DNA from: Eledone cirrhosa
Taxonomy: Eukaryota
Assembly (NCBI GenBank): GCA_964016885.1
Contig: OZ024742.1
Coordinates: 81,096,001-81,160,000, forward strand
DNA length: 64,000 nucleotides
Direction: 5' to 3'
Of this stretch, positions 37,995-58,729 are shown piece after piece. The translations under genes were made by a program, and so were the position numbers. Under the pieces are notes generated by a model. The model worked only from the letters and a program-made list of their open reading frames with translations, did not search any database and was not told the DNA's origin. Within the stretch, counting starts at the first letter, position 1. Each line of letters begins with the position of its first letter.

Positions 37995-38940
37995 GTGTGA
38001 AGTAATTCCGTCTGAAAGGTCCAGGAAAAAAGAGTTCTCTATGTAAGTTACAGAGCTTATTAGTTATGTAATAAACAACATAAGATAATTATTTCATTTA
38101 CCGGTGGTTTCTTGAAAGCAAACAAAATATGCTTCCATTCATCAGAATGAAAACATCCTGGTGTCTTTATTGACAGTGTATTTGAAAAACAAACATATAA
38201 CAGATATGAAAGTGAGGCTGGAGGAAAAACAAAGGGGGGGGGATAATAAATAAGAAGATATAACAACACACACGTACACACACACAAGCACACACACTCA
38301 CATATGCACACGTATATCCATATATGTATACACATATACACGCATGTATACACATTAATATACACAGAGACACATATACACGCATATATACACAATTATA
38401 TACACAGATACACATATACACACACATACATATATATATATATCCATACATAAACACACCAACACACACACACACACACACACACACACACACACAAACA
38501 CGCGTATATATATATATATATATATATATATATATATATATATATATATATATATATATGTATATATACATACATACATATATATATATATACACATTTA
38601 TATATATACATGCACACGCATACATATATATATATTTATACATATATATATATATATATATATATATATATATATATATATATATATATATATACATACA
38701 TACATACACATACACATACATACACACATGTATACACACATGCATACGTACTCACATATAAAATGATACATATGCACAGAAATAAGAATAAATAATCAAA
38801 GTTGGCTGTCACATACAAATAAGCAAATAAAAAATAAGGATTAAGAAAATAAAAAAAAATAAAAAATATTATTAAGTTGACAGCGATAGAAAACGGCAAA
38901 ATTTTGAATAAAAATTCAAATAATAAAAACAATAATAATA
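37995..38940 (-). mobile_element. PLE-type 3' UTR/pLTR with tail (left arm of large inverted repeat)
   Basis: Reverse complement of 57115-58335 once later insertions are removed; contains an HHR and the tail hairpin AGCTCTGTAACTTACATAGAG. Confidence 0.85.
38092..38152 (-). ncRNA. Canonical type I hammerhead motif
   Basis: tttcatt-CTGATGA-atggaagca..tgctttcaa-GAAA-CC ACC GG-TA-aatgaaa. Confidence 0.9.
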
Positions 38941-38942
38941 AT

Positions 38943-41900
38943 GCTTTCTTTATTAACCACAAGGGTTTACATAAAGTAGACGTTAAGGACAGTACAGGAC
39001 AATACAGGACGGTACAAATGAGCATTACTGCTTGTAAAAAACAAAAACAGAGGTGGTAACAAAAAAATAACAAGGAGAAATTCCCCAATACGGGGGAGAC
39101 TTCCGAGGGACATACGTGGAGAAAGCCCATGAAAAAGCCACAGTGACCCTGACCAGCAGGGCAAGTGCCCTCTCCCAGTTTTCCACCTTTAATTTACAGC
39201 CACATACTCAGAGTAGGCCCATTCACTCGGGCCATTCTTGCCTCCCTCACCCATCTTTCAACAAAATGCTGGGTTGAGAGCACTTCCCTCTCTACCCTGA
39301 TTTTCCATTTCAAATGAAATTGGAAAATGTTAATCAGGGCATCACCTAAGAGGTACGTGCTCGTCTTCAGCCCTTTCAAACGTGTCCACCATACTATCTC
39401 TTTCGCCATGGCCACCAGACGGATAAAAATTACTCCGTCAAGGAGACGAGCTGGGGAAAGACGCGTCTAGCAAACGGCGGCCACACCTGATCACCGTTGA
39501 GGAAGAGGTGCAGATGTCGTAGCCTGAGCGCGTGTCTGCGCATCATCAGCCACGGCATGCCCAGCGTTCCACGTAGCGAGTGGTGACAGCAGCTGGACCG
39601 CCTGACCATCGGAGCGCATCCCTTCCAAAAAAAGCGAAAAAAGCAAACGCTCCAGCGCAGTCAGACGGGGCTTACGACACGGTATGACGGTCAGGCGGAT
39701 TAGATGACGGACACGATGTACGCGTTAGCCACCTCCGCTCAACCTTTCAGGGATAGCTTCCTCTCCTCCCATTTCTGGGTGAGAGAAGCCACCCTGCTCG
39801 TCACCTCGTCCAAGTTTTTGTCCGTCTAGAAGTCCGGACTGAACCAGACCCCTAGCAATTTAACCGATCCCTCCGTCCATCGCCCGACGACGCTGTTGGA
39901 CGGCACATGGACCCGCCACTCATGGTGCCGAGCTGCAGCCCCACTGACCTCTCCTGGTTGATCATTGCTCCTGTCACCGTTTCGTATTCTCTTAGTGTAG
40001 TGCCGATCGCCTCTATGTGTTTGGCGTTCGACACCACTACGGTGACATCGTCCGCATATGCTGACACGGATCTTGCGCGTCCTAGTTGGCGTGGAATCCC
40101 CCTCAACGTCTCCAATTTGTGCAGTAATGGCTCGAGCGTCAATACGTAAAAGAGGAACGAGAGGGAACATCCTTGGCGGACCGAGCGAATGATGTTGAAC
40201 GGTCCGAAAGGTGACCGTTCACTCTCACCACGGAGCATATGTCACTGTGCATGGCAGCTATCCAGCGTCTGAAGACGGGCCCAAAGACAGCCATCCTCAG
40301 GACTGCCGCTAGGTAAAGATTGTCGACCCTATCGAAAACTTTCGACTGATCTAAATTGATCAAGGACCCACACGTACCAGGTTCCCTAGCTACCCTTTCC
40401 ACAATGTATAGCCTGAGGTGGAGTTTGTCGTGGATGGATCTTTCGTAAATGGCGCAGGTCTGCGCCTCTCCCACAAGACCATAAACGACAAGCGTCAACC
40501 ACTTTGCAGCACCTTGACCAAAATCTTGAACTCTGGGTTTAGCAGAGTTATGGACCTGAAATTATCTATGTTATCCCCTTGTTCAGATCATTTCTCAGCA
40601 GCCCCACAGCTCCGCGGCTCACGGAGCTGGGAATTCTCCCGTTCTGTTGCCACTTGCAGTAGACACCCGAGAAGAGGCCTCCGAACAAGTCTTGCATCTG
40701 TACTTAAAGTTCCTAGAGCAGACCATCCAAACCAGGCGATTTACCCCTTGTCCAGCCAGTCATTTCCTCCCGTTTAGCGGCTGCTGTCGGCTTTTCGCAG
40801 GACTCCGCCTCAGTGGACTAGAGCCGCGGCAGTCCGTCTAGGTAGACACTAAAGTCCATCCCTCGATCCGGCTTGCCGCTGCCTCCGAACAGTTGATCTA
40901 AATGTAGTTGAAAAGCCCCACACATTTGCCCAGGATCGCGTAGCATGCGCCCGTCATGGGCCACCCAAAACCGGATCGTGGGTCTCTTGCCACGACGCGC
41001 CTCCGCCGCTCGGGTCAATTGAACAGCTTTCGTCCCCTCGTGTCTGAGAGCACGCACCCTAGCTCTGACAACGCAGCCTTCGTTCTTTGCATTGAAGAAT
41101 TGGTCAAGGGCCAATATCGCCGCAAGTACGTCGGACGCGATGCCCTTGCTAAACGCCTCGTCTAATTTTCTAACTAGTTGTTCCTCTGCTCTATTTTTCT
41201 CTATTGCTAAAGCCTTACTGAACCTAATGGACTCTATTCTAATCGCTCTTTTCAGAGCAAACCACCACTTGCTGTTGACGATGGCCCCCGCCAACGCCCG
41301 CTTAACTAGTTCGCTTATCCGGTCTATGTAGGCCTTGCGTGCTGGTAACGACGCGTTTAGCTTCCAGTAGCCGGGTCTTCGTCTATGAAGCCTATATAAG
41401 TCAAGCACACAGATCACGAATTTGTAGGCCGTGTATCTGACTATCTTGAATTGTGGACAGCCTATGCTAGACCTCTCTATTTCCCTACAAAATATTCTAT
41501 CTAGATATGATCTGGATGACCCTATGCGCTTTGTCCAAGTCCACATTGGCACGTTCGGGAAATCCAAACGGGTACCTGTCAGACAGTTGAAAACGCCTGA
41601 GCAGGTTGATGAGGCGCTTGCACGCTCCTCCCCTATCCGCTTATCCCACACAGTCCCAGCATTGTTCTAAGATCCCGTTCCAATCGCCCAATAACACTAA
41701 AGAGCGGGACATCCCAAGAAAGGTCTCCAGACGCCGCCAGAAATCAGGCCGCCCTGCTCCTGTCGGGGCATAGAGGCCATTAGCCTGAAAGCTTGCCCGT
41801 CTCCGCTGGTCACGTCCAGCACCACCAACTTACCTTCTCTGTTCAGGAAGATGGCCCGTATGGCGAGATCCAAACCTCTCCGAAAAAGCACAGCAACTCC

Positions 41901-58130: not shown

Positions 58131-58245
58131 GTTATATATTCTTATTTATTTTTCTCCCCACATCTTTTTTTTTTCTCCAGCCTCATTTTCATATCTGTTA
58201 TATTTTTGTTTTTCAAATCCACTGTCAATAAAGACACCAGGATTT

Positions 58246-58305
58246 TTTCATTCTGATGAATGAAAGCAAATTTGCTTGCTTATAAGAAACCACTGGTAAA
58301 TGAAA
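58246..58305 (+). ncRNA. Canonical type I hammerhead motif
   Basis: tttcatt-CTGATGA-(stem II aagcaa..ttgctt)-GAAA-CCACTGG-TA-aatgaaa; predicted cleavage after 58298 (GUA). Confidence 0.9.
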
Positions 58306-58729
58306 TAATTATCTTATGTTTTTTATTACATAACTATATATATATATATATATATATATATACCATACGGTATATTGCCAAATATACTATATATACATTC
58401 ATGTATACATCGCTATTTCAGAGTACCAATCCTAGATCCGGCAATCGCTCTGAATAATCAGCTCCTGATTATTACTGAAATTCTATAAGAAACCAACTTC
58501 TATAATTTTCTGCGAAAGCAAGGGGTGCGTGACTCTGATTAACGTCAAACAGCGTGACACAGTCTGTTAGCTTCTCTCCCTTCTTTCGCGGAAAAGAAGT
58601 AAGTGACATAGTCACTACTTTAAAACCGATAGGGTAAGGACTTTTAAACGTGTTTAATTAAACATACGGTATATTGCCAAATATACTATACATACATTCA
58701 TATATATATATATATATATATATATATAT

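Follow-up and report, generated by a model that had tools for sequence, protein, structure and literature searches.

A ~20-kb inverted repeat lies in a stretch of 64,000 nucleotides of the Eledone cirrhosa genome (contig OZ024742.1, positions 81,096,001 to 81,160,000 of the forward strand), which we call the window. It is a fold-back of a Penelope-like element (PLE), and each arm holds a Tx1-like long interspersed nuclear element (LINE), Tx1-A. Probably, both (ATT)n repeats of the PLE fold-back were hit independently by Tx1-like LINEs, and ~0.6 kb with a deletion was later copied between the arms. The structure is real, and both its elements and the events behind it are of known kinds.

At their 5′ ends and in their 3′ untranslated regions (UTRs), the two Tx1-A copies are of different subfamilies. 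They are non-sisters over most of their length and sisters only along a ~0.6-kb tract, which bears a 505-bp deletion and is bounded by non-sister sequence. A first-pass annotation of the window had offered two histories, that a PLE transcript copied a ~5-kb LINE into both arms or that an (ATT)-targeting LINE subfamily hit both arms independently. The former fails in that the 5′ 3.9 kb and the 3′ UTRs are not sisters. The latter was right about the independent hits, but two subfamilies made them, not one.

Architecture of the inverted repeat

Self-BLAST of the window matches 38061–44273 (−) with 51615–58336 (+) in blocks of 74–93% identity. Both sides run in the order of (ATT)n, Tx1-A, (ATT)n, microsatellite UTR and hammerhead, just as first annotated. 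The arms stand head to head, the short tailed one at 37995–44273 (−) and the long tail-less one at 44274–58334 (+). The centre is not a spacer but PLE sequence in plus sense, with which the right arm starts at 44274, and it begins with the last 23 codons of the PLE open reading frame (ORF).

A type I hammerhead motif terminates each arm. The left end has a tail of ~65 bp and the right end stops at (TA)14, so the tail is confined to the left as the annotation had it. Its reading of a PLE-type fold-back also holds. Tx1-A is present in both arms as claimed; the right arm also has a second LINE (Tx1-B), and its Tx1-A has a loss of ~840 bp of the reverse transcriptase (RT) region and a duplication.

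In the PLE parts, the arms mismatch by 8.9% at the hammerhead end and 6.9% in the unique UTR. On the 3′ side of the LINE, the mismatch is 12.2% in the 3′ UTR and 7.6% and 6.1% in the segments flanking the deletion. On its 5′ side, the first part of ORF2 mismatches by 10.7%, ORF1 by 8.9% and the 5′ end itself by 13.0%.

Such roughly even divergence along the arms would suit a plain segmental event, in which a region with the PLE and the LINE already in place was duplicated in inverted orientation. However, similarity ends at the PLE ends, many other loci of the family show the same contrast of a tailed and a tail-less arm, and the LINE ends come from different subfamilies, all of which make this duplication very improbable. 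Similarity past the hammerhead ends, which the annotation had named as evidence for such an inversion, is absent; the best local score is 31 in ~2 kb of masked flank per side.

An assembly artefact is extremely improbable. The arms are 6–13% apart with arm-specific insertions and deletions, unlike a collapsed or mirrored assembly, and the same architecture occurs at many loci. Short-read contigs, which contain ≤0.35 of the sampled words, were compared with 55200–57200 and 56575–56665; among the pieces listed, none bridges a junction, which is uninformative either way.

Relationship of the two Tx1-A copies

The deletion junction occurs in both Tx1-A copies where the annotation had placed it. 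A pattern search with ≤1 mismatch finds just two matches in the 3.0-Gb genome, both at this locus. Thus the junction is private to the locus and not common among free Tx1 copies, which would have told against a shared origin. The pattern search was preferred because a DNA similarity search with the junction, in which 40 of 500 candidates were scored, overlooked even the right arm. Nor was the deletion found in the other PLE-hosted Tx1-A copies that span that segment.

The right Tx1-A has three parts. Its 5′ part reaches the ORF2 end, where the sequence jumps back at a microhomology of 10 bp; then come the ORF2 end once more, this time with the deletion, and the 3′ UTR. The 5′ part is without the ~840 bp of RT, yet the 505-bp segment is present there, upstream of the deleted copy.

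We counted private variants common to the left and right copies against a panel of 73 other Tx1-A copies, with background pairs from 42 long ones. The 5′ part (3.9 kb) has 2 against 1.76 expected over 3141 sites, and the tract has 3 against 0.25 expected over 578 sites (P 0.002). The 3′ UTR has 0 over 202 sites. Consistently, when the distance between the arms is divided by the sum of their distances from the family majority, the tract gives 0.71–0.73 and the other parts 0.83–1.01.

In the tree, the left copy groups with the right 3′ part at a support of 88, while it stays ungrouped with the right 5′ part. Whether the two copies are nearest relatives, as the annotation had asked, is thus answered with yes in the ~0.6-kb tract and with no over most of the length. 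Nine PLE-hosted Tx1-A copies are scattered among the free ones and form no clade. The first alignment and tree omitted L092, L093 and L098 (different ORF1) and L096, L103 and L204 (short or rearranged). The former three are PLE-hosted, and their mutual identity of 89–95% is at the family level.

The left and right 3′ UTRs, each from a large subfamily, differ at 4/4 diagnostic sites. The right-type 3′ UTR motif has 391 exact matches in the genome and the left-type 44. The nearest 5′ haplotypes are L194 and L364 for the left copy, with the left-type 3′ UTR, and L352 and L341 for the right copy, with the right-type one.

The tract could have arrived during the right LINE insertion, if the RT started on RNA of the right type, changed over to a transcript of the neighbouring deleted left copy and returned at the 10-bp microhomology. 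This single event would account for a left-like tract between a 5′ part and a 3′ UTR that are both right-type, and for the out-of-register junction; the family is mosaic, with short 3′-end duplications also in free copies. However, a copy that already had the deletion must have supplied RNA where the right LINE inserted, which presupposes that the left copy is transcribed. Sequence alone cannot tell such a switch from one at the DNA level. We regard this route as unlikely. The arms remain independent insertions under it, too.

The private deletion in both arms and the sister tract would also follow if a PLE transcript with a deleted Tx1-A in its UTR was copied into both arms, a second Tx1-A was stacked in the right arm and fused by deletion, and one 3′ UTR was later overwritten. 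Tx1 stacking at the PLE (ATT)n is common, and ORF2 has a mild excess of rare variants common to both arms. Nevertheless, the 3′ UTRs adjoining the tract are from different subfamilies, so the overwriting is an extra step that this history needs. Moreover, no source locus with the deletion was found elsewhere in the genome with the junction pattern (≤1 mismatch), the PLE-hosted copies lack a clade of their own, concordant sister arms are missing from the other fold-backs (below), and the cargo is not sister over its whole length in the two arms. We therefore regard such co-mobilisation as improbable.

PLEs reportedly carry host genes between pseudo-long terminal repeats (pLTRs), as in the Penelope-mediated capture of host sequence in a bdelloid rotifer (PMC3846280). 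The likeness is that inverted pLTRs frame foreign sequence, and that capture is a precedent for co-mobilisation. The LINEs here differ in having (ATT)n flanks of their own and in belonging to different subfamilies; therefore, they inserted by their own machinery. None of the titles listed by literature searches concerned a PLE with a LINE in each arm.

The LINE families and their (ATT)n target

Tx1-A is an (ATT)n-specific LINE. Among the fetched loci, ATT repeats adjoin 47 of the 48 Tx1-A 5′ ends and 95 of the 96 3′ ends, and only 12 of these 96 sit in this PLE. The family member L200 has ORF1 and ORF2 with matches to PF03372, PF00078 and PF13966, namely an apurinic/apyrimidinic (AP) endonuclease, RT and zf-RVT. 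These LINEs are putatively of the Tx1 clade rather than of another clade in the L1 group, a label that comes from the annotation and fits them. Their homologues carried no clade names.

Microsatellite-specific Tx1 LINEs are known, Kibi on (TC)n and Koshi on (TTC)n, and so is Tx1 nesting in other transposons (PMC4494074). Tx1-A resembles them, as described there, in the two ORFs, the AP-type endonuclease, RT, zf-RVT, strict repeat targeting and nesting in a mobile element. The difference from that description is that the target here is (ATT)n, with some of the targets supplied by a PLE UTR.

The (ATT)n in the PLE 3′ UTR is an insertion hot spot. The motif just upstream of it has 78 genome matches, 30 of which were read; 12 are filled with six different starting sequences and 18 are empty. 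The genome DNA searches scored 40 candidates each, and the counts derived from them are lower bounds. LINE stacks are common at the PLE (ATT)n, and the right arm is one such stack of Tx1-B and then Tx1-A. The junction of the Tx1 3′ end with the PLE UTR recurs as the annotation had anticipated, at 13 other loci among 40 scored matches and in 16 exact pattern matches, but as independent insertions.

Short 3′-end duplications are seen in the free Tx1-A copies L045 and L050. In L330, L349, L100 and others, a young-type Tx1-A 5′ half is followed by a 3′ end of another type. This mosaicism suggests frequent recombination between subfamilies.

Opposite-strand elements with long ORFs also enter the PLE (ATT)n (L143–L172; L183:3005–9500; L096:6900–7640). 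The L096 insert translates to the C-terminus of a restriction-like endonuclease and is presumably R4/Dong-like. Three identical Tx1/PLE junctions lie ~60 kb apart at C28:9065368, 9123894 and 9185178, and are probably a segmental tandem duplication.

Other fold-backs of the PLE family

Eleven other fold-backs have both (ATT)n regions readable. Two of them are without Tx1, Tx1 is confined to a single arm in six, and both arms are filled in three. Tx1-A in both arms was found in none of the 11, and concordant sister arms in none of the 9 that carry any Tx1. Two further loci were not counted, C1:80.97 Mb (nested, with the tailed arm beginning past the ATT) and C1:191.96 Mb (tandem).

At C1:413.7 Mb, another Tx1 family is in both arms at 93.5% identity. 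This double filling arose by independent insertion and its copies are not sisters, because free copies match the right one better (97–98%). Within a PLE arm there (L230:7000–10000, C1:413.69 Mb), a tandem array of ~340-bp units has an orientation switch.

A PLE-hosted Tx1-A in L099 is interrupted by an inverted piece with PLE pre-ATT sequence and ~125 bp of ORF1. By eye, this looks like a local inversion with deletions. The region (L099:3400–4100, C3:101.34 Mb) was set aside as cargo evidence, since the PLE resumes in its first orientation past the inverted piece.

The host PLE and its hammerhead

The hammerhead end and the tail belong to a high-copy family, whose 39 best other copies are 90–94% identical (40 of 3271 candidates scored). 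The segment 44275–44346 encodes the final 23 residues and the stop of an ORF that runs further upstream in other copies. In the relative L304, an open frame of 714 aa matches the family C-terminus at 85% identity over 217 aa. Its N-terminal RT region reads KRMRWKAM and SDKTKN, the RWK and DKT motifs. The family protein P0001 has CSCRKPGEC (the CxCx5C linker), CSLC (CxxC) and CPH (CxH), and the window holds the CPH end.

These motifs are those of the Hydra PLEs, which combine RWK, DKT and the CxCx5C linker with a C-terminal GIY-YIG domain whose conserved E and N have CxxC and CxH on either side (Craig et al. 2021, PMC8557442). Profile scans of the ORF gave no relevant Pfam or PDB match for an RT or GIY-YIG domain. 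The label of a Hydra-clade-like PLE rests on motifs for this reason. The atlas neighbours of the ORF at 0.96–0.97 have GIY-YIG or RVT_1 on 18–77% of members.

An inverted 5′-truncated copy with a tail at one end is a described PLE pattern (PMC8557442). The insertion at (TA)n, the inverted copy and the one-end tail are present here and recur over many loci of the family. The likeness to the Hydra-clade PLEs with C-terminal endonuclease covers RWK, DKT, the CxCx5C linker, the motifs around E and N, the hammerhead motif, (TA)n insertion and the inverted, 5′-truncated copy with its one tail (PMC8557442).

The differences lie in the 3′ UTR, which is microsatellite-rich here, ~3 kb or more, and bears (ATT)n targeted by other elements, and in the tail, which is ~65 bp here and 30–40 there. 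The element is also above the Hydra norm of <3 kb, with an ORF of ~2.1 kb and 3.9 kb from the ORF end to the tail in L307, later insertions possibly included. L307 has the ORF end, UTR blocks, (ATT)n, hammerhead and tail in co-linear order. In the tandem copies L310, L321 and L322, the tail lies ~1.3 kb ahead of the matched ORF part, upstream of the ORF. This layout is consistent with PLE tails deriving from the start of the next unit (cf. PMC11167929). This PLE family may already be among the Hydra families listed in the PMC8557442 supplements.

The core of a type I hammerhead, a putative ribozyme, is intact in both arms. Both have CUGANGA plus GAAA, a UH site and three stems. Usually, the opening pair of hammerhead stem II is G-C. 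Among 65 distinct motifs of the family, the first position of stem II is A-A in 53, and 8/8 stem II pairs are retained in 48. The annotation had called the motifs canonical, which suits the core but neither the A-A opening nor the absence of an Rfam match at the gathering score. The minimum-energy fold of the region differs from the hammerhead fold. Scans of the ribozyme, the short repeat of the right arm and the PLE ORF with Rfam, tRNA, Pfam and PDB searches gave no match.

Proposed history

The order of events and the copying mechanism are what we infer. First, the PLE would have entered (TA)n as a fold-back of ~3.3 kb, a size obtained by subtracting later insertions. Sequence-specific LINEs would then have inserted separately, one into each arm's (ATT)n. 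One LINE copy would have lost 505 bp, and the stretch around the deletion would have been copied to the other arm, most likely by gene conversion or repair template switching between the inverted repeats.

The copying may have been helped by the two related LINE copies lying inverted ~10–17 kb apart. In one version, the right copy had a tandem duplication and was the donor for the left; in the other, the left was the donor, and its tract landed out of register in the right. The direction was tried by the private-mutation load, and the loads do not decide. Gene conversion acts between the arms of inverted repeats or palindromes. The locus resembles it in the local tract of common variants between nearby inverted copies, while it differs in being a single old event in decayed repeats whose arms are otherwise ~10% diverged.

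Several points weigh against this history. In the first half of ORF2 (reference 2200–3933), loose thresholds give 6–7 rare variants in common against 2.5–2.9 expected (P 0.03–0.04), the strict threshold gives 2 against 1.2 (P 0.35), and a smaller first panel gave 8 against 4.3 (P 0.07). Therefore, the arms may share more history than one tract, and an earlier or longer exchange is possible. The tract itself is supported by 3–5 common events and the deletion.

In addition, the mosaic nature of the Tx1-A family weakens the subfamily labels. The arm-to-arm divergence is alike in the PLE and LINE parts (6–13%), so the equal divergence that the annotation would have taken as support for co-mobilisation is non-discriminating. 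Several of the 11 fold-backs were found via the Tx1 junction and form a non-random sample, and the site occupancy comes from 30 of the 78 sites. Still, the locus is most likely a usual case of nested mobile elements, not of an element that carried a second one.

Features of the locus and its neighbourhood

The features of the fold-back are collected in Table 1.

Table 1. Features of the PLE fold-back, in window positions
Feature	Position	Strand	Remark
PLE tail, ~65 bp, this arm only	37995–38062	−	adjoins (TA)n end of another repeat (37696–37994)
Distal PLE 3′ UTR, short tailed arm	38063–38945	−	(ATT)n, unique stretch, microsatellites, hammerhead end
Type I hammerhead motif, left arm (predicted)	38092–38152	−	CUGAUGA + GAAA core; stems I/II/III 7/8/3 bp
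Tx1-A LINE, near full length, left-type 5′ end and 3′ UTR	38946–44244	−	505-bp deletion at ~39431
Tract of common descent with 56242–56871	39181–39811	−	deletion and private variants
(ATT)n at LINE 5′ end and head-to-head inversion junction	44245–44273	−	3-bp overlap
PLE ORF, last 23 codons and stop; long tail-less arm begins	44275–44346	+	
Proximal PLE 3′ UTR, microsatellite-rich	44347–45765	+	closed by target (ATT)n at 45707–45765; co-linear in L307
Tx1-B LINE, right arm only, ~70% identical to Tx1-A	45766–51598	+	(ATT)n on both sides
Tx1-A LINE, right-type, 5′ end to ORF2 end	51644–56241	+	without ~840 bp of RT at 55391; 505-bp segment kept
Second copy of ORF2 end, 505-bp deletion at ~56620	56242–56871	+	joined at 10-bp microhomology; sister of left tract
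Tx1-A 3′ UTR, right-type subfamily	56872–57106	+	4/4 diagnostic sites unlike left copy
Distal PLE 3′ UTR, long arm, without tail	57107–58334	+	then (TA)14
Later small fold-back, related hammerhead family, right arm only	57416–57630	.	self-comparison and motif
Later short interspersed repeat, right arm only	57945–58130	+	~19 bp duplicated target; probably SINE-like (short interspersed nuclear element)
Type I hammerhead motif, right arm (predicted)	58246–58305	+	core motif and stems

Small fold-backs, mostly at (TA)n, are at 6106–6605, 17707–17878, 25501–25840, 29392–29912, 30840–31415 and 57409–57556 of the window, and the one at 30840–31415 has a CTGAAGA...GAAA motif in each arm. Further PLE-like ORF fragments are at 26960–27559 (+) and 13527–14060 (+), the first resembling the Hydra-like family by eye. 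A different kind of LINE lies at 728–3412 (+), where an open frame of 894 aa matches endonuclease and RT. At 62321–63615 (+), a tandem coding repeat of 69 bp precedes frames that resemble the Rep region of a Helitron.

Significance

Had a Hydra-like PLE reverse-transcribed RNA with a deleted Tx1 LINE into both arms, and had later stacking and conversion overwritten the LINE ends, the tract would be its trace. If true, such transport of kilobase-sized LINE cargo by PLEs would be truly interesting, but our tests speak against it and leave it a long shot. A private deletion common to two copies does not by itself prove co-transposition.

The locus illustrates in detail how mobile DNA nests, and the fold-backs of this family lend themselves to studies of how PLE inverted copies form. 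The high-copy PLE spreads an (ATT)n landing pad, filled by LINEs in 12 of the 30 sites read, and fold-backs of ~3 kb grow to 20 kb.

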